Of a stretch of 32,000 nt of DNA, positions 26,141 to 31,888 are shown piece after piece. The DNA comes from Gemmata obscuriglobus (GTDB lineage: Bacteria; Planctomycetota; Planctomycetia; Gemmatales; Gemmataceae). Numbering within the stretch: position 1 is the stretch's first letter; each line of letters opens with the position of its first letter. The stretch is taken from NCBI RefSeq assembly GCF_008065095.1, contig NZ_CP042911.1, positions 4,410,001 through 4,442,000 of the forward strand, given 5' to 3'. The notes beneath the pieces were generated by a model. The model saw only the letters and a list, made by a program, of their open reading frames with translations. It searched no databases and had not been told where the DNA came from. Both the position numbers and the translations under genes were made by a program.

Positions 26141-28639
26141 ATGAGCAGCCCGCTGACGATCGGCATGGCGACCCGGGGCGAGCCGGACCACGTGTGGTTC
26201 GTGCTCTCGGCCCTGGCCGCGAACCACCCGCGGGTCGAGTACCTGGTGGTGGACAACACCCCGGAGCGGGACCCGCGGGTGGAGGCGATCACCCGGGCCG
26301 TCGGCGGCCGGTACCTGCACCGCCCGGACCTCACCGGTACGTCCAAGCCCCGGGACGCCGTGTTCCGGTTCGCCCGCACCCCGTGGGCCGTGTGCCTCGA
26401 CAGCCACGTGATTCTGGAAACGGGCGCGGTGCAGGCGGCCCTCGACTTCGCGGCCCGGAACCCGGACTCGCGGGACATCGTGTCCGGGCCGCTGGTGTAC
26501 GACGACGGCCGAGGGCTGAGCACACACTGGAAGACGAACCCGGGCGGCGGGTTGTGGGGCACGTGGGACACGGACCCGCGCGGCGCGGATCCGGCGGGCG
26601 AGCCGTTCGAGATCCCCATGATGGGCCTCGGGCTGTGGCTGATGCGGACCGCGGCGTGGCCCGGGTTCCACCCGCTGTTCAACGGGTTCGGGGGCGAGGA
26701 GGGGTACGTTCACGAGGTGGTGCGGCGCCGCGGGGGCCGGGCGCTGTGCGTGCCCGGGCTGCGGTGGCGGCACAAGTTCCGGGACGTGTCCGGCTGGCAC
26801 AACAACCCGCCGCCCCCGTACCCGCTCCGCACCGAGGACCACGTGTGGAACCTGCTGGTCGGTCACCGGGAACTCGGCATTGAGGCGGACCAGCAGATCC
26901 GCGAGCACTTCGGGAAGAACCTGGGGGCGGACACCTGGGACAGACTCGTCAAGACCGCGGCGCACGTTCAGCCCCTTGACGGCCCCCGTCCGGGTCCAAC
27001 GCGGCAGCGCATACTGGCCCTGTGGTACAGCGATAACAGCGCCCCGGACCCCCTCCTCATGCGCTCGCTTCAGTCCGTGATTGACGCCCGGGAGCAGACC
27101 ATCCGGCACGACGTGACCGTCAGCGCGTGCGCCTGGGAGATCGGCGGGAACCTGGGCATTCTCCCGAGCGTGAACACCCCCGGGATCATGCTCCGGAGCT
27201 TCATCGGGGCGCGGAAGCGGGGCTATAACACGATCCTGGCCCAGATCCGGCAGGCGGTGGCCCATGCCACCGCTTCGGGCGAGGAGTACGACGCGGTCGC
27301 GTTCTGCGAGCACGACGTGCTGTACCCCCCGGGGTACTTCGACCGGCTCGGGGACGCCCTCGCCGCGCACCCGTCGGCCCCGGTGGTGTCGCACCGCGAT
27401 TACATCGGCCTCAGCGGCACCGGCTGGCAGCGGGTGCGTGAGCGACACGAGCCCCTGCACCAGCTCTGCCTCCGCTGGGACACGATCCAGAGCAACCTCG
27501 CGCGAGCCGAACGTGAGGCGGCGAGCGGCGCGGCGGTGGTGCTTGAGCCGGACCATGAGGCCGATCGGTCCGCCTGGGCGCGGCTGGAGCCCGCCGACCC
27601 CGCGGGCATGAGTGGCACTCCGAGTGTTCACGTCAATCACAATGCCGGCCGGTTCACGGCGCACGGGGACGTGTGCTACGAGCCGCGCGGCGCGTCCCTG
27701 TGGCACCCGCACTGGGGTGAGGCGCGGCACTGGTGGCCCGGCCCGATGGTCACGGTGTCGAACGTGGACGTGACGCAGTTCAAACCCGAGAAGCCGGCCG
27801 GGTGCTCGGCGTGCGAGGCGAACGCGCACCCGACCCCGGAGGCGTGGGCGCGGGCCGCCGCGGCGAAGCCGTCCGACTTTCACGAGCACGTGGGCACTCT
27901 CCGGGAACTGGCGGCGAAGTGCTCGAGCGCTGCGGAGCTGTCGCTGTGGATGAAGCCGGCGGACGCGGCGATCGTCGCCGGCCTCCCGGCCGACGGCACG
28001 TTCGTGAGCGTGTGCCCACGCGCGAAGCCGCAGTGGGAGCGCATGAAGGGCTGGCTGGGGGCGCGGTTCGAGGGCCGCACGGCCGACCCGGCGACCGCGG
28101 ACCTGCCCCCGGTGGACCTGCTGTTCATCGACACCGAGCACACCGCCGACGCGCTCATGCCCCTGCTGGAGCGGCACCGCGAGCGGGTGGCGAAGTACAT
28201 CGCGGTCCACTGCACCGAGACGTTTGGGGAGAGCGGCGACCGGCCCGACGCCCCGGGCGTGCTGCACGCGCTGCGAACCTTCTGCCACCGCCACCCGGGC
28301 TGGGTGGTGAAGCGCCGCGACCGGAACAACCACGGGCTGATAGTTCTGTCGCGGTGCGCCGAGGACGTGAGGGCGAAGCCGGCGCTGTGGCGCCAGGCGA
28401 TGAACTACACGGCGGCGATGGCGCGGCACGTGGCGGACGGGCGCCGGACGGTGCCGCTGGACGTGCTGGAGGCGCGGCAGGCCGAGTGCGCCCTGTGCGA
28501 GGAGCGGGCGCTGGACGCGTGCGCCGCGTGCGGCTGCCCGCTGGAGGCGAAGCTGCCCCTCGCAACCGAATCGTGCGGGCTGGTGAAGAAGGGGCAGGCG
28601 CCGAAGTGGGGGGCGTGGCCCGCGGGCGCGGCCGCGTAA
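26141..28639 (+). CDS. Multi-domain glycosyltransferase (832 aa): N-terminal GT-A/GT2-like domain, a second GT-A-like region, a class-I-methyltransferase-like region and a C-terminal Cys cluster
   Basis: N-terminus: IGMATRGEP...YLVVDNTPERD...AVCLDSHVIL...IPMMGLGLWLMR...FGGEEGY (GT2 layout with a D-S-H metal motif at 26399-26407). Middle: ALWYSDNS...AFCEHDVLYPPGYF. Then VDLLFIDTEHTADALMPLLE...IAVHC, which is Methyltransf_24-like although the Gly-rich SAM loop is not obvious. The end is CALCEERALDACAACGCP. Confidence 0.8.
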   Translation: MSSPLTIGMATRGEPDHVWFVLSALAANHPRVEYLVVDNTPERDPRVEAITRAVGGRYLHRPDLTGTSKPRDAVFRFARTPWAVCLDSHVILETGAVQAALDFAARNPDSRDIVSGPLVYDDGRGLSTHWKTNPGGGLWGTWDTDPRGADPAGEPFEIPMMGLGLWLMRTAAWPGFHPLFNGFGGEEGYVHEVVRRRGGRALCVPGLRWRHKFRDVSGWHNNPPPPYPLRTEDHVWNLLVGHRELGIEADQQIREHFGKNLGADTWDRLVKTAAHVQPLDGPRPGPTRQRILALWYSDNSAPDPLLMRSLQSVIDAREQTIRHDVTVSACAWEIGGNLGILPSVNTPGIMLRSFIGARKRGYNTILAQIRQAVAHATASGEEYDAVAFCEHDVLYPPGYFDRLGDALAAHPSAPVVSHRDYIGLSGTGWQRVRERHEPLHQLCLRWDTIQSNLARAEREAASGAAVVLEPDHEADRSAWARLEPADPAGMSGTPSVHVNHNAGRFTAHGDVCYEPRGASLWHPHWGEARHWWPGPMVTVSNVDVTQFKPEKPAGCSACEANAHPTPEAWARAAAAKPSDFHEHVGTLRELAAKCSSAAELSLWMKPADAAIVAGLPADGTFVSVCPRAKPQWERMKGWLGARFEGRTADPATADLPPVDLLFIDTEHTADALMPLLERHRERVAKYIAVHCTETFGESGDRPDAPGVLHALRTFCHRHPGWVVKRRDRNNHGLIVLSRCAEDVRAKPALWRQAMNYTAAMARHVADGRRTVPLDVLEARQAECALCEERALDACAACGCPLEAKLPLATESCGLVKKGQAPKWGAWPAGAAA

Positions 28640-28648
28640 ACGCAAAAA

Positions 28649-28678
28649 GCCCCCGGCGGGATCTCTCCCGCCGGGGGC
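28649..28678. terminator. Bidirectional terminator hairpin between convergent genes
   Basis: Perfect 13-bp stem GCCCCCGGCGGGA / TCCCGCCGGGGGC with a TCTC loop. An A5 run precedes it (a T-run for the - strand) and a T-containing tail follows it. It starts 10 nt after the stop at 28639. Confidence 0.7.
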
Positions 28679-28691
28679 TCTCGTATGGAAT

Positions 28692-28711
28692 CGCCCCGGA
28701 CAACCGGGGCG
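28692..28711. terminator. Second GC hairpin (CGCCCCGG-ACAA-CCGGGGCG)
   Basis: Perfect 8-bp stem with a tetraloop, 19 nt beyond the stop of the leftward gene ending at 28730. It belongs to the CCCCGG/CCGGGG hairpin family seen after every leftward gene. Confidence 0.45.
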
Positions 28712-28729
28712 GTCAAGCGGAACGGTCAG

Positions 28730-28969
28730 TCACTTCTTCCGGTCGGGCCTGTTCGGACGCAGTCCCCGCGGGTCCGCGGGGTACTCGCCGCCGTCGGACA
28801 GATCCCGTACCCGCGCCAGACACGATTCCGGATCCAGGGCCGGCAGAACTTCCACCTCGCCCCACCCCCGGACGTGCCGGTCCAGCCAGTACCGGCCGCC
28901 GGCTTTGAGGCGCGCGAGCGCGGCCCTCATCGCCCGCTGCTCCCGCTGCCACTCGCGGTACGTGTCCAT
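28730..28969 (-). CDS. Small hypothetical protein (79 aa)
   Basis: ATG 28969 has GGGAGGGA 5 nt upstream and is preceded by leader type A. G/C-rich third codon positions. The longer track ORF (to 29053) merely translates the conserved leader. Confidence 0.6.
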   Translation of the reverse strand: MDTYREWQREQRAMRAALARLKAGGRYWLDRHVRGWGEVEVLPALDPESCLARVRDLSDGGEYPADPRGLRPNRPDRKK

Positions 28970-28976
28970 CCCGTCC

Positions 28977-29040
28977 CTCCCTTGACTCCCCGTTGCTGGA
29001 CTTGTCACCAGCGTTCCACCGCGGAACGGTCGGGTTAAGG
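28977..29040 (-). repeat. Leader type A, copy 1
   Basis: A 37-nt block is identical to 30763-30799 (CTCCCTTGACTCCCCGTTGCTGGACTTGTCACCAGCG). It is followed by a hairpin whose stem differs from copy 2 by two compensatory pairs, then GGTCGGGTTAAGG. Confidence 0.7.
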
Positions 29041-29062
29041 GCCGGGGCCACAAGGCCCCGGC
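29041..29062. terminator. GC hairpin GCCGGGGCC-ACAA-GGCCCCGGC
   Basis: Perfect 9-bp stem 4 nt downstream (in - sense) of the stop of 29067..29399. Confidence 0.5.
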
Positions 29063-29066
29063 GGTG

Positions 29067-29399
29067 TCACGGGCCGGCGAGCCGCCGCACCCGCGGCGCC
29101 GCGCCCCGCTCGCGCAGGGCGTGGGACGGGTGCGTGACCCGCGCCGGCCGGTCCTCCGGCGCGAGCCGCCGGTCCTCGCGGGCGGCCTCGAGCGCGGCCC
29201 TCCGGGGCACGTCGCCCAGGAGCCCGCGGTCGCCGGCCAGCGCCGCGCACAGCAGGCGCACCGCGCACGCCGCGTGGAGCCCCACGAACACCAGGTGCAC
29301 GCCCGCCGGCCCGGCCCGCCCGGTGAGCCCGGCGTGGGCCGAGCTGCACGTGCCGCCGGCGAACACCAACCCCAACAGCAGCTGAAGCGCCTTCCTCAC
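29067..29399 (-). CDS. Small membrane/secreted protein (110 aa)
   Basis: GTG 29399 with GGAGGG 6 nt upstream. N-terminal signal-like helix MRKALQLLLGLVFAGGTCSSAHA and a second hydrophobic helix. Very G/C-rich third codon positions. Confidence 0.6.
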   Translation of the reverse strand: MRKALQLLLGLVFAGGTCSSAHAGLTGRAGPAGVHLVFVGLHAACAVRLLCAALAGDRGLLGDVPRRAALEAAREDRRLAPEDRPARVTHPSHALRERGAAPRVRRLAGP

Positions 29400-29523
29400 G
29401 AACGGCCCTCCGTCGACAGGAACCCGGCTCTGCGTTGCACGGGCTGGCCACCGTTCCCCGGCCCGCGCCGGGGAGCCGCATTACGGCCCCGCGGCCCCGG
29501 GAAACCGGGGCCGCGGCGGGCGC
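29400..29523 (-). repeat. Intergenic module type B, copy 1
   Basis: Blocks: CTCTGCGTTG (29428-29437); CACGGGCTGG; perfect 8-bp palindrome 29455-29462/29467-29474; GCCGCATTA (29475-29483); 12-bp hairpin 29489-29500/29505-29516 with a GAAA loop. Confidence 0.65.
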
Positions 29524-30396
29524 TCAGTCGCGCCCGCAGTAGCCGTGGAGCTTGCACCCCGCGGCCCGCAAGATGGCGCTGGCCTCGAGGCGGGTCTTGG
29601 CCGTCCGGACCCGGGCCCACACCTTGGCCGCACGGCGGTACGCCTCGCTGCCGCTCTGCCGGCTCGGGGTGATCTCCATCCACTCGTTCACGTCGTCGAG
29701 ATCGCGGATCGTCACGCCCGTCTCGTCCGCGCCGGCGGACCACGCGCCGGGGACCCCCGCCGTCAGCGGCACCGCCGGGGCGTCGACGCCCCGGATCTGT
29801 TCGTCGCGGACCACGATCCCGTACACCCGCGCCGCCTCCGGGTCGCCCGCGGTGTACGCCGCGAGCCGGGCGAGCAGCTCGGCCCGGAGCGCGTCGAAGT
29901 CGGTGTGCAGGCTGATCCCGTCGAGCCAGTGGCAGACGCCCTGGCAGAACCCGCCGCACCGGTCCTCGGGCGTGCCCGGGCGCGCGGCCCCGGCGCCCCA
30001 GCCGTTGAACCGGAGCACGCGGCAGGTCTTGCCGCGCTTCCCGGCGTTGGCCATGTCCGTGACCGTCGCGGTCCCGCTGCCCGGCCACGTCCGCGTGTGG
30101 ACGCGGGGCGGGGTCACGTGCTGTCGCAGCAAGCTGGCGGCCCGTTCGCCGCACGTGTCCGGTTGCGGGTTGTCGTCCAGGTAGTCGGCGAGCACCTCCT
30201 CGCCCCGCTGCTCCGCAATCACCGCCCGCGCCAGCGCGACCGCCTCCGGGTCGTCGCTGACCCAGCTCGGGCCGCGGCCGCCCGCGAGCGGGTACACGCT
30301 CGCCGCGAGGCCGCCGTCCCGCCACGGGCCGACGCGGACGTGCACGCCGTTCACGTCCGCCGTCTGCTCCCGGGGCGTTGCTTCCGTTGTCACCAT
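29524..30396 (-). CDS. Hypothetical protein (290 aa), Cys-containing, unknown function
   Basis: ATG 30396 with GGAGG 8 nt upstream. G/C-rich third codon positions. Bracketed by type B modules. No family recognised. Confidence 0.65.
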   Translation of the reverse strand: MVTTEATPREQTADVNGVHVRVGPWRDGGLAASVYPLAGGRGPSWVSDDPEAVALARAVIAEQRGEEVLADYLDDNPQPDTCGERAASLLRQHVTPPRVHTRTWPGSGTATVTDMANAGKRGKTCRVLRFNGWGAGAARPGTPEDRCGGFCQGVCHWLDGISLHTDFDALRAELLARLAAYTAGDPEAARVYGIVVRDEQIRGVDAPAVPLTAGVPGAWSAGADETGVTIRDLDDVNEWMEITPSRQSGSEAYRRAAKVWARVRTAKTRLEASAILRAAGCKLHGYCGRD

Positions 30397-30518
30397 CTGA
30401 AAACCTCCGTTCGTTCACCCCCCTCTGCATTCGCTCCGGGCTTGGGACCGGCGCCGCGGCGCGTGCCGCGGCGGCTGCATTACGGCCCGCGGCCCCCGGG
30501 TTCGGGGGCCGCGTCGGG
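30397..30518 (-). repeat. Intergenic module type B, copy 2
   Basis: Blocks: CTCTGCATTC (30423-30432); CTCCGGGCTTGG; perfect 9-bp palindrome 30452-30460/30465-30473; GCTGCATTA (30474-30482); 10-bp hairpin 30489-30498/30503-30512. Confidence 0.65.
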
Positions 30519-30755
30519 CTAGTTGCGCGTCATGTCGAGCGTGGCCCGCCAGTCGTCCCACGGGTCGAGCGGGCGCGTCGCGTAGTCCCACCGCAGCGCG
30601 GTCCGCTGCAGCGCCTCCACGTCCGCCACCGTCTCGCACCCCCGGAGCCGTTCGGAGAGGGCCTCGTGGTCCTCGTCCTCGCACAGGATCCCGCGGTCCA
30701 GGTTCCCCTGGATCCGCCGCTTCATCTCGCAAAGCGCCTCGTCGTCGGCTTGCAT
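30519..30755 (-). CDS. Small acidic hypothetical protein (78 aa)
   Basis: ATG 30755 with GGGAGG upstream, preceded by leader type A copy 2. The longer track ORF (to 30794) translates the leader. Confidence 0.6.
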   Translation of the reverse strand: MQADDEALCEMKRRIQGNLDRGILCEDEDHEALSERLRGCETVADVEALQRTALRWDYATRPLDPWDDWRATLDMTRN

Positions 30756-30762
30756 GAGCAGC

Positions 30763-30828
30763 CTCCCTTGACTCCCCGTTGCTGGACTTGTCACCAGCGC
30801 CCCACCGTGGGGCGGTCGGGTTAAGGGC
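30763..30828 (-). repeat. Leader type A, copy 2
   Basis: See copy 1. The hairpin here is CGCCCC-ACCGT-GGGGCG (30798-30814), against CGTTCC-ACCGC-GGAACG (29012-29028) in copy 1. Confidence 0.7.
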
Positions 30829-30854
30829 CGCGGCCCCGGTTTCCCGGGGCCGCG
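30829..30854. terminator. GC hairpin CGCGGCCCCGG-TTTC-CCGGGGCCGCG
   Basis: Perfect 11-bp stem 4 nt downstream (in - sense) of the stop of 30859..31107. It has the same stem as the hairpin at 29489-29516, with the loop in the opposite orientation. Confidence 0.55.
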
Positions 30855-30858
30855 ATCG

Positions 30859-31107
30859 TCACGTCGTCCGGGCCGGCCCGTCGAGGAACCGGTCCCACAG
30901 CGGCTTCAGGGCCGCCGCCACCACCCCGACCAGGCACCGCCCGTAAGCGAACCCGAGCACCAGGTGGAGCAGCAGGTGCCCGACCCGCGCGCCGACCGGG
31001 GCCGCCTCGACCGCGGCCGCCGGCGCCACCGCCTTGAGCGAGGTGATCAGGAACCACACCAGGGCCGCCCCCAGCGCCCACCCCGCCACGTTCTTCACCG
31101 CTTGCAT
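30859..31107 (-). CDS. Small membrane protein (82 aa, 2-3 hydrophobic helices). A holin-like or other membrane function is possible.
   Basis: ATG 31107 with GGGAGGGG upstream. Hydrophobic helices: VAGWALGAALVWFLITSL and HLLLHLVLGFAYGRCLVGVVAAAL. G/C-rich third codon positions. Confidence 0.6.
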   Translation of the reverse strand: MQAVKNVAGWALGAALVWFLITSLKAVAPAAAVEAAPVGARVGHLLLHLVLGFAYGRCLVGVVAAALKPLWDRFLDGPARTT

Positions 31108-31213
31108 TCCGAACCCCTCCCGCGCTCTGCATTCACCCGGGCTTGCGACCGGCCGCGGTTCTAGCCGCGGGCTGCATTAAGAGGGCGGGGGCCTCGGAGG
31201 CCCCCGCCGCGGG
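31108..31213 (-). repeat. Intergenic module type B, copy 3
   Basis: Blocks: CTCTGCATTC (31125-31134); ACCCGGGCTTGCG; CCGCGG-TTCTAG-CCGCGG (31153-31170); GCTGCATTAA (31171-31180); 9-bp hairpin 31185-31193/31199-31207. Confidence 0.65.
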
Positions 31214-31420
31214 TCACCAGTTCCGGCCCTTGTTGCCCCAGGCCCGGTAGCCCTCGGCCAGGAGCAGGCAGATGAGCTTGCGCTCGTTCTCCGTCTCCCC
31301 CCGGAGCGTCGGCACGTAGCCGCCGTCCAGCGCCGCCTTCAGCTCGTCCCAGGTGTCGAACGCGGTCACCGCGTTCACCAGCCGGTCCTTGATCTCGCCC
31401 GGCAGTTCGGCCTTGCACAT
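31214..31420 (-). CDS. Small hypothetical protein (68 aa); first gene of the leftward operon
   Basis: ATG 31420 with GGGGAGGG 7 nt upstream. It lies downstream of the AT-richer divergent control region. No family recognised. Confidence 0.6.
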   Translation of the reverse strand: MCKAELPGEIKDRLVNAVTAFDTWDELKAALDGGYVPTLRGETENERKLICLLLAEGYRAWGNKGRNW

Positions 31421-31490
31421 CGCCAGACCCTCCCCGGGAACGCACGCGGGCGGCCCGAGTGGCCGCCCGTCGCACGCCCCAACGGGACGA

Positions 31491-31581
31491 ATACTAGCGA
31501 ATCACTAGTGACGAGCGAAGAAAAATCGCTGGCGAATTTCTAGGCCGACACTAGTGACGCCGGGGCGGGGCCGCGTAGAGT
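31491..31581. promoter_or_regulatory. Divergent promoter/operator region: two perfect CACTAGTGAC palindrome-containing sites plus one degenerate copy, overlapping candidate leftward and rightward sigma70-like promoters
   Basis: CACTAGTGAC occurs at 31503-31512 and 31549-31558, and ACTAGCGA at 31492-31499. Leftward candidate: -10 TAGTAT (complement of 31491-31496) with a 17-nt spacer that contains operator 1. Rightward candidate: -35 GTGACG (31554-31559), 16-nt spacer, -10 TAGAGT (31576-31581). This is the AT-richest non-coding patch apart from the moron island. Confidence 0.4.
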
Positions 31582-31618
31582 GGGCGGGGCACTGCGGTGG
31601 CGCGGACGAGGGGCGGAC

Positions 31619-31888
31619 ATGGCGAAGCGGACGCGGCCCCGGCAGAACGTGGCCGGGGCCAAGCAGTTCAACTACGAGATCGACGGGGCGCTCGCGGACC
31701 GGTTCCGGCAGTTCTGCCGGGACCGCGGGGAGACGATCGTCGGCCACCTGGAGATGGCGCTGCGGCGGCACATGGACAACCCGCCGCCGGTGCCGGTGCT
31801 GCCCCCGCTCCCGCCGGTGCCGGCGCCCGCACCCCCGGCGAGCGGGGCGAAGGCGCGCGGGCGCGCGCCGAAGCCGAAGAGCGATTGA
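31619..31888 (+). CDS. Ribbon-helix-helix (CopG/Arc/MetJ-like) DNA-binding protein with a Pro-rich basic tail. Candidate repressor of the divergent region.
   Basis: ATG 31619 with GAGGGG upstream. FNYEIDGALADRFRQFCRDRGETIVGHLEMALRRHM fits the beta-strand/helix/helix RHH layout. Overlapping track ORFs on both strands were rejected. Confidence 0.7.
   Translation: MAKRTRPRQNVAGAKQFNYEIDGALADRFRQFCRDRGETIVGHLEMALRRHMDNPPPVPVLPPLPPVPAPAPPASGAKARGRAPKPKSD

Follow-up and report, generated by a model that had tools for sequence, protein, structure and literature searches.

Type-P1 twister ribozymes identified by sequence and structure at all five gene junctions of a prophage operon in Gemmata obscuriglobus

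The stretch of DNA analysed here (the window) comprises 32,000 nt of Gemmata obscuriglobus contig NZ_CP042911.1, positions 4,410,001 to 4,442,000 of the forward strand, in a 9.0-Mb genome with 67.4% GC. It carries a prophage operon of six leftward genes, g68, g82, g78, g290, g110 and g80. An earlier note, made from the sequence alone, had described three intergenic units of this operon, called type B, in which conserved blocks flank a palindrome that changes in sequence and keeps its pairing. Judged by their sequence and predicted fold, these three units, together with two leaders of a second kind, called type A, are type-P1 twister self-cleaving ribozymes (Rfam RF03160). The five modules add new and unannotated members to an established ribozyme class, in a (phage) context of a kind already known, and a literature search found no paper linking twisters with Gemmata. 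It is probable, from their make-up and placement, that the modules self-cleave a polycistronic mRNA into hairpin-capped monocistrons.

The five ribozymes all lie on the minus strand, and each is matched over the whole covariance model (positions 1-68 of 68). They are given below in window positions, with the scissile bonds predicted by a structural descriptor:

31119..31183, minus strand: twister B1, g68/g82 junction; RF03160 63.8 bits, E 2.5e-13; predicted scissile bond U31179/A31178
30766..30827, minus strand: twister A1 (type-A leader), g82/g78 junction; RF03160 37.0 bits, E 4.2e-7; predicted scissile bond U30823/A30822
30417..30486, minus strand: twister B2, g78/g290 junction; RF03160 48.9 bits, E 5e-9; predicted scissile bond U30482/A30481
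29422..29487, minus strand: twister B3, g290/g110 junction; RF03160 36.4 bits, E 1.9e-5; predicted scissile bond U29483/A29482
28980..29041, minus strand: twister A2, g110/g80 junction; RF03160 36.4 bits, E 5.7e-7; predicted scissile bond U29037/A29036

A1 and A2 were dropped by the speed filters of the larger Rfam scan that matched the three type-B units, and their own RF03160 matches were obtained on regions searched alone. The type-B units occupy whole intergenic gaps between minus-strand open reading frames (ORFs), at 31108-31213, 30397-30518 and 29400-29523, which are exactly the coordinates first noted; the earlier observation is confirmed and stands far above chance. Their conserved blocks TAATGCRGC and AAYGCAGAG have exact matches nowhere else in the window, and counts of matches with one mismatch allowed drop to chance level there. 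The remaining gaps, 30756-30858 and 28973-29066, hold the second leader, type A, in two nearly identical copies.

The features that define twisters (the stems P1, P2 and P4, the pseudoknots T1 and T2, the scissile A and the catalytic G) were taken from a review (PMC5408937) and from the CHiTA preprint (10.1101/2024.07.11.603121); type P1 is attributed to Roth et al. 2014 (Nat Chem Biol 10:56), as cited in PMC5408937. T1 joins L1 (the GAG-NNN region) to L4 by three Watson-Crick pairs, and T2 joins the 'GC' of L2 to two bulged nucleotides of L4 by two pairs (PMC5408937). Every block of the type-B units can be placed on this architecture. TAATGC(A/G)GC is the U^AA cleavage site followed by the 5' strand of P2 and the 'GC' of L2, and the perfect 6-9-bp palindromes, borne out here as CCGCGG/CCGCGG, CGCCGCGGC/GCCGCGGCG and UCCCCGGC/GCCGGGGA, are the optional stem P3. 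C(A/C)AGCCCG is loop L4 with the 3' strand of P4, and (G/C)AA(T/C)GCAGAG runs from the AA junction through the 3' strand of P2 and the catalytic G-A to the first nucleotide of T1. The GC hairpin that follows the upstream stop codon is the optional stem P0. The half-repeat AATGCAG occurs twice per unit because P2 (UGCA) is self-complementary and both of its strands are flanked by AA and G. Integron attC-like cassettes, which also have variable palindromes, were considered and dropped as the whole module aligns end to end with the twister; no search for an integron integrase was made.

The cores of the individual ribozymes agree with this assignment. According to the descriptor, B1 has a perfect P2 (UGCA/UGCA) and P4 (CCGG/CCGG) with T1 CGC/GCG and T2 GC/GC, and A1 a perfect P2 (CCCG/CGGG) and P4 (CUGG/CCAG) with T1 GAC/GUC and T2 AC/GU. 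The minimum free energy (MFE) fold of A1 reproduces P0, P1 (CCCUU/AAGGG), P2, P3 and P4. B2 has T1 CCC/GGG, T2 GC/GC and a P3 of 9 bp, and B3 combines P2 UGCG/CGCA and P4 ACGG/CCGU with T1 GGC/GCC and T2 GC/GC. The core of A2, including T1 GAC/GUC and T2 AC/GU, is that of A1 except in P3, where CCCC/GGGG has become UUCC/GGAA, a compensatory change. Wherever the type-A core departs from the consensus, the change is a compensated one within a pseudoknot or stem, and the linker 5' of the P2 3' strand is shorter. The type-A variants T1 GAC/GUC and T2 AC/GU (consensus CCC/GGG and GC/GC) occur elsewhere too.

Further support came from covariation. The alignment held 11 distinct ribozymes from four genomes: the five of the window, four from the related genome G062 and one each from G026 and G118. 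The paralogous prophage described below was rejected as a source of covariation, being too similar, with few substitutions over five modules, and the other three genomes were used instead. Across the 11 ribozymes, 94.7% of the cells pair, as against 17-48% when the partners are slid. P2 is paired in 100% and P4 in 97.7% of cells, with three of four pairs in each stem changed on both sides. T1 is likewise 100% paired, with two of its three pairs changed on both sides, and T2, also 100% paired, shows both-side changes, the type-B GC/GC and type-A AC/GU forms being compensated. P1, which is weaker in B2 and B3, is paired in 79.5% of cells in the Rfam register. On four of five measures the observed value was reached by none of 500 shuffles; on the fifth, 'further standard pair types', 374 of the 500 reached it. 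The covariation supports P2, P4 and both pseudoknots as features of a folded RNA.

P3 was left out of these pair counts, as MAFFT put it in no structure-consistent register, and was examined sequence by sequence. It is a hairpin of 5-10 bp in 11 of 11 ribozymes with a different sequence in each. The invariant columns comprise the cleavage-site A (AA after N-1), the catalytic G of GAG, the G-C pair closing P4 and the U..A of L4; further columns without variation are those of the G and U where P4 meets L4, of the L4 nucleotides A, G and C, and of the GAG itself.

The hairpin that precedes each ribozyme is part of the same picture. P0 is recognised as an optional stem directly 5' of twisters (10.1101/2024.07.11.603121), and a GC hairpin ends 3-7 nt 5' of the predicted cut in all five modules and in the four units of G062. 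As noted before, the hairpin after each upstream stop is strong: the 45 nt 5' of each site fold at -25.5 to -36.2 kcal/mol, as detailed below.

31184..31208, minus strand: P0 of B1, 11-bp GC stem; upstream 45 nt -26.6 kcal/mol; 5 nt from stem to cut
30828..30855, minus strand: P0 of A1, 12-bp stem with loop GAAA; upstream window -29.0 kcal/mol
30489..30512, minus strand: P0 of B2, 10-bp stem; upstream window -31.8 kcal/mol
29489..29516, minus strand: P0 of B3, 12-bp stem with loop UUUC, the stem of the A1 P0 inverted; upstream window -36.2 kcal/mol
29041..29062, minus strand: P0 of A2, 9-bp stem; upstream window -25.5 kcal/mol

These hairpins have no U tract and are followed by CCCUUAA or GCCGUAA. 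The hairpins of A1 and B3 share the stem GCGGCCCCGG/CCGGGGCCGC, as the earlier note had seen, and their loops, GAAA and UUUC, are reverse-complementary; one hairpin is the inversion of the other.

Several observations weigh against the identification as twisters or against efficient cleavage. Against an RF03160 gathering threshold of 67.2 bits, the five scores, 63.8 to 36.4 bits, all fall short. B2 and B3 have a weak P1 of 2-3 bp, and for the GC-rich B units MFE folding predicts competing structures. In addition, P0-bearing twisters cleaved less in a high-throughput in vitro assay, with a mean fraction of 0.40 compared with 0.85 (10.1101/2024.07.11.603121), and cleavage here may therefore be partial or slow. 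As to the first point, a gathering threshold is a curators' cut-off and no structural feature, and the covariance model scores compensated pseudoknots as mismatches to conserved letters. As to the second, P1 has been reported to be dispensable in twisters (PMC5408937; CHiTA, 10.1101/2024.07.11.603121).

The same observations could be read as signs of decay, the modules then being non-cleaving relics that act as structured elements of the 5' or 3' untranslated region (UTR), for example as exonuclease barriers. The low scores, the lowered cleavage of P0-bearing twisters and a core substitution in B3 (A-to-C at the A.A position of L4) would fit such relics. We regard this as decidedly unlikely: all five modules keep their catalytic and pseudoknot positions, intact or with compensation, approximately 94% of the natural twisters tested cleaved, and the A-to-C change made no significant difference in the CHiTA assay (10.1101/2024.07.11.603121).

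Within the genome, the element is confined to prophage DNA. A second element, paralogous and inverted, lies at 7.56 Mb; the two, at window -2672 to 35116 and genome 7593518-7556693, are each about 38 kb long with blocks that are 95-96% identical. Both encode head, protease and tail proteins and are therefore prophages. The descriptor, with the invariant letters fixed and perfect P2, P4, T1 and T2 required, was run exhaustively over the genome and gave 12 sites in 9 Mb, nine of which are the five junctions here and four in the paralogue. P2 is 3 bp long in the other three, which resemble chance matches, as do all five sites in the reversed genome. The composite TAATGCRGC-N-AGCCCG-N-AAYGCAGAG occurs six times in the 9.0 Mb, three times here and three times in the 7.56-Mb prophage, and a backwards-read control gave none. 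Our own twister model, R1, gave nine matches in the genome and no others. A host-wide family of repetitive extragenic palindromic (REP) sequences, which the earlier note had named among the outcomes that would undo its proposal, was rejected, since there are nine copies only, all in the two paralogous prophage operons. This restriction to prophages, like the sequence and structure identity of the five elements and their covariation, is observed directly.

Among relatives, R1 matches were found in 3 of 151 family genomes sampled and in 3 of 29 genus genomes, both counts including the present genome; this sporadic distribution is the pattern that a mobile element would give. In G118 and G026 the synteny is the same: a divergent RHH-like gene, the first leftward gene, a twister, and then further genes. 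Of the genes in the operon region, only the RHH-like gene and the 68-aa gene have homologues in G118. Another genome of the genus has a weak match to our twister model (G078:C52:8706-8783, 29.7 bits, E 3e-4). In G062, four units of P0, twister, Shine-Dalgarno (SD) sequence and start codon stand on one strand ahead of genes that are non-homologous to the operon genes here.

A scan across phyla with the exact composite motif gave more than 120 contigs (Clostridia, Bacteroides, Poribacteria and others), with about 3 expected by chance from the information content of the motif. The signature is also abundant on IMG/VR viral contigs. Among 129 twisters of the same signature from other phyla, a set chosen by the motif itself and hence no unbiased sample of all twisters, a stable hairpin lies upstream of 81%, compared with 19% of random positions, and an SD sequence plus start codon follows within 60 nt 3' in 80%, compared with 17%. 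Arrays of 2-4 ribozymes per 8 kb were found at 26 of 98 loci. The same-signature twisters of other phyla and of viral contigs often form arrays on one strand, in which the median spacing is about 1.5 kb. The tally of hairpins and SD-led starts suggests that 'hairpin, twister, SD, ORF' is the general arrangement in bacteria and phages.

These results bear on the proposal, made in the earlier note, that the units are a repeated early promoter or operator. On such a reading the element is DNA, either an early promoter or a binding site of the RHH-like protein with AATGCAG as half-site, and it is true that the modules lie directly upstream of each gene with the RHH-like gene adjacent. The half-repeat is indeed present twice per unit; its copies, 45-50 nt apart, hold the two P2 strands (UGCA/UGCA) and do not constitute an operator half-site. 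A DNA-binding site does not require a variable palindrome with kept pairing or two covarying pseudoknots, both of which point to RNA. Furthermore, the element also occurs in Clostridia, Bacteroides, Poribacteria and viral contigs without such an RHH context. A scan of 28500-31700 for sigma-70-like promoters (-35/-10 with 16-18-nt spacing) and for consensus terminators reported neither promoter-like nor terminator-like sites. A sigma-54-like TGGC-N-TGCA seen by eye in B3 was discarded, as its spacing is wrong and it is absent from B1 and B2. A promoter or operator function is thus extremely improbable.

The RNA reading draws attention to the operon as a transcription unit. Its genes, taken from the ORF list, and its flanking signals are as follows:

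28730..31420, minus strand: six-gene leftward operon g68, g82, g78, g290, g110, g80; all ORFans
31214-31420, minus strand: g68 (68 aa)
30859-31107, minus strand: g82 (82 aa)
30519-30755, minus strand: g78 (78 aa)
29524-30396, minus strand: g290 (290 aa)
29067-29399, minus strand: g110 (110 aa)
28730-28972, minus strand: g80 (80 aa)
28644..28678, minus strand: operon-end terminator, hairpin GCCCCCGGCGGGAGAGAUCCCGCCGGGGGC then UUUUU; canonical, read directly from the sequence
31421..31579, no strand: divergent regulatory region between g68 and the rightward RHH-like gene (102 aa); AT-richest non-coding patch, with CACTAGTG palindromes

The GC content at third codon positions is 0.81-0.99 in the six ORFs, which are therefore real genes. 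The order P0 hairpin, ribozyme, SD sequence, start codon is kept at all five junctions, with one ribozyme per junction, always on the coding strand. The earlier picture of every leftward gene as a bracketed cassette thus holds once the two type-A leaders are counted, the module being present at five of five junctions of the six-gene operon. The six genes are read as one transcript because the modules have no promoter or terminator consensus, the sole U-tract terminator lies at the operon end, and 31421-31579 is the sole AT-rich patch. That patch is the only plausible place for the operon promoter, and TTCGCT-17-TAGTAT (minus sense) within it, picked out by reading the sequence, is an unconfirmed promoter candidate. 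The terminator at 28644-28678 is the only U-tract terminator of the operon, and the consensus scan did not report it. At the same 3' end there is a sub-threshold match to Acido-1 RNA (RF01686) at 28652-28714, minus strand, scoring 30.7 bits where the gathering score is 50; of its two hairpins, the second is the hairpin-plus-U5 terminator.

From this arrangement we infer cleavage in vivo, a single operon transcript, and stabilisation of the products by the hairpins and by their unusual ends. In the proposed mechanism, the operon would be transcribed as one RNA from about 31421-31579 to the terminator at 28644-28678. As each ribozyme emerges, it would fold P1, P2, P3 and P4, be locked by T1 and T2, and self-cleave on the 5' side of the conserved A of U^AA, at the five bonds listed above, so that the polycistron would become six monocistronic RNAs. 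The 3' end of the upstream piece would consist of the stable P0 hairpin and a tail of no more than 7 nt that carries a 2',3'-cyclic phosphate. The downstream piece would start with a 5'-OH and the compact ribozyme body, the SD sequence and start codon being within 14-27 nt of the ribozyme core. Fragments of 356, 341, 999 and 446 nt are predicted for the internal genes. The likely pay-off is that each cistron would have its own stability and translation, independent of its neighbours. The suggestion of RNA processing or stability sites in the earlier note was essentially right in this respect, and what it had not recognised was that the element is a twister ribozyme.

Polycistron processing has been suggested, and not established, for bacterial twisters, and among the thousands of self-cleaving ribozymes known from bacteria and phages the natural function is described as 'largely elusive' apart from glmS (PMC6765202). 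With a twister and a P0 hairpin at five of five junctions of a six-gene transcription unit, the present operon offers a natural test case of unusual clarity, in the layout of the engineered pRAP design that has been shown to give stable monocistrons (PMC9872166). Two near-identical prophage copies, one of which has an extra cassette, are carried by the host, a cultivable planctomycete. Testing the arrangement here would inform the whole class of bacterial and phage twisters. For annotation, the lesson is that type-P1 twisters with compensated pseudoknots escape both the Rfam gathering threshold and the speed filters of large scans.

Cleavage could also serve mainly to control translation. Here, P1 of the uncut RNA would mask the SD sequence, and cleavage, by freeing the 5' strand of P1, would unmask it. 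In B1, A1 and A2 the 3' strand of P1 (CGGG/GAGGG, AAGGG) does lie inside GGGAGG(GG), 6-7 nt 5' of the start codon, and in fungal and plant RNA viruses self-cleavage of UTR ribozymes is needed for the initiation of translation (PMC13725137). The SD sequences of B2 and B3, however, are at least 12 nt downstream of P1 and thus outside it, and elsewhere an SD-like motif starts at the P1 3' strand in 28% of genome-contig and 15% of viral twisters. Moreover, a P1 of 4-5 bp is a weak barrier to a ribosome. As a general mechanism, SD sequestration by P1 was rejected, applying to three of five modules here and to 15-28% elsewhere, and a translational switch is kept as a minor rival that we consider rather unlikely.

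Processing of the transcript is also compatible with a different account, in which the 55-70-nt units of ribozyme plus hairpin are phage homology patches for cassette swaps and cleavage is secondary. The prophage in the window has one complete cassette, P0 + A2 + g80 (window 28724-29069), that the paralogue lacks (genome 7562752-7562760), and g80 is single-copy in the genome. Unrelated genes follow A1 and A2, which are near-identical, and in G062 four such units flank non-homologous genes. For the cassette-wise gene exchange raised in the earlier note, these data provide circumstantial support only: one complete cassette distinguishes the two paralogues, and the same architecture stands ahead of non-homologous genes. 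The compensatory changes in P2, P3, P4, T1 and T2, by comparison, reveal selection on an RNA fold, beyond DNA identity. The indel is a single one; its left edge is about 4 nt inside the coding end of g110, and its junctions lie outside the ribozyme sequence. That recombination is the main role of the modules is, in our judgement, unlikely.

A further fate of the processed RNAs can be envisaged. With a twister at either end, each of the four internal cistrons is predicted to carry a 5'-OH and a 2',3'-cyclic phosphate after its release. Such ends are substrates of RtcB, of which the host encodes one. By eye, the 3' tail that the downstream ribozyme leaves (CCCUU or GCCGU) can pair with the P1 3' strand of the cistron's own 5' ribozyme: g290 would have a pairing identical to the native P1, g82 one of 4 bp, and g78 and g110 one of 3 bp each. 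The two ends would then lie close to each other, as they do in the engineered Tornado circularisation system. That the prophage might in this way yield circular, exonuclease-proof mRNAs translatable from their SD sequences is a very improbable extension of the processing model.

Searches of Pfam, PHROGs, PADLOC and NCBIfam gave no match for the six operon proteins, and a search of the PDB gave none for the 290-aa protein; the idea of an anti-defence island is left unsupported. In the rightward arm, just inside the right end of the prophage, sits an S8 subtilase gene (window 32772-33944, plus strand; Peptidase_S8 E 1.8e-54; phrog_3677 'protease'), after which, beyond the end of the duplication, comes a host MCP chemoreceptor gene. 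Units of about 440 nt, 75-89% identical, form long arrays that adjoin both prophage copies and occur at three other loci (genome 4384000-4407500, which is window about -26000 to -2500, and 1.34-1.377, 5.16-5.23, 5.49-5.51 and 7.594-7.612 Mb). Genome 4395001-4395183 is the end of a multicopy element, presumably an insertion sequence, with more than 20 copies across the chromosome at 99-100% identity.

Several known systems can be set beside the operon. Ribozymes of fungal and plant RNA viruses, twisters included, are likewise viral, lie just upstream of ORFs, and have their cleavage tied to expression of the downstream ORF (PMC13725137). Those systems involve eukaryotic cap-independent translation and RNA genomes, whereas the present case is a bacterial DNA prophage with SD-led initiation. 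The PeSL (promoter-early stem-loop) units of T4-type phages, reportedly described by Arbiol, Comeau and Krisch in 2010, are said to be repeated, conserved intergenic units that bracket small accessory genes. They are reportedly linked to cassette gain and loss and act at the DNA level, as promoters plus terminators. The modules here differ in having no promoter consensus, in being ribozymes and in showing selection on the RNA fold.

In layout the operon parallels the engineered pRAP system, in which units of stem-loop, twister, ribosome-binding site and ORF yield monocistronic mRNAs in E. coli and the upstream stem-loop is required for expression of the released cistrons (PMC9872166). The unit order, repeated between the cistrons, is identical to that of the prophage, and a terminator hairpin follows the last one (PMC9872166). 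pRAP is engineered, with one ribozyme sequence and T7 RNA polymerase in E. coli, whereas the prophage has five ribozyme sequences and its cleavage is predicted. As for the ribozyme itself, the modules share with twister type P1 the succession P1, U^AA, P2, L2 'GC', P3, P4 with L4 'U-NNN-A-A-GC', AA, P2', GAG-NNN and P1', both pseudoknots, the cleavage-site A, the catalytic G and the optional P0 and P3, and in addition a phage-linked genomic context (PMC6765202). They differ in that all five score below the gathering threshold, in the type-A pseudoknots (T1 GAC/GUC, T2 AC/GU) and in their host, a prophage of a planctomycete.

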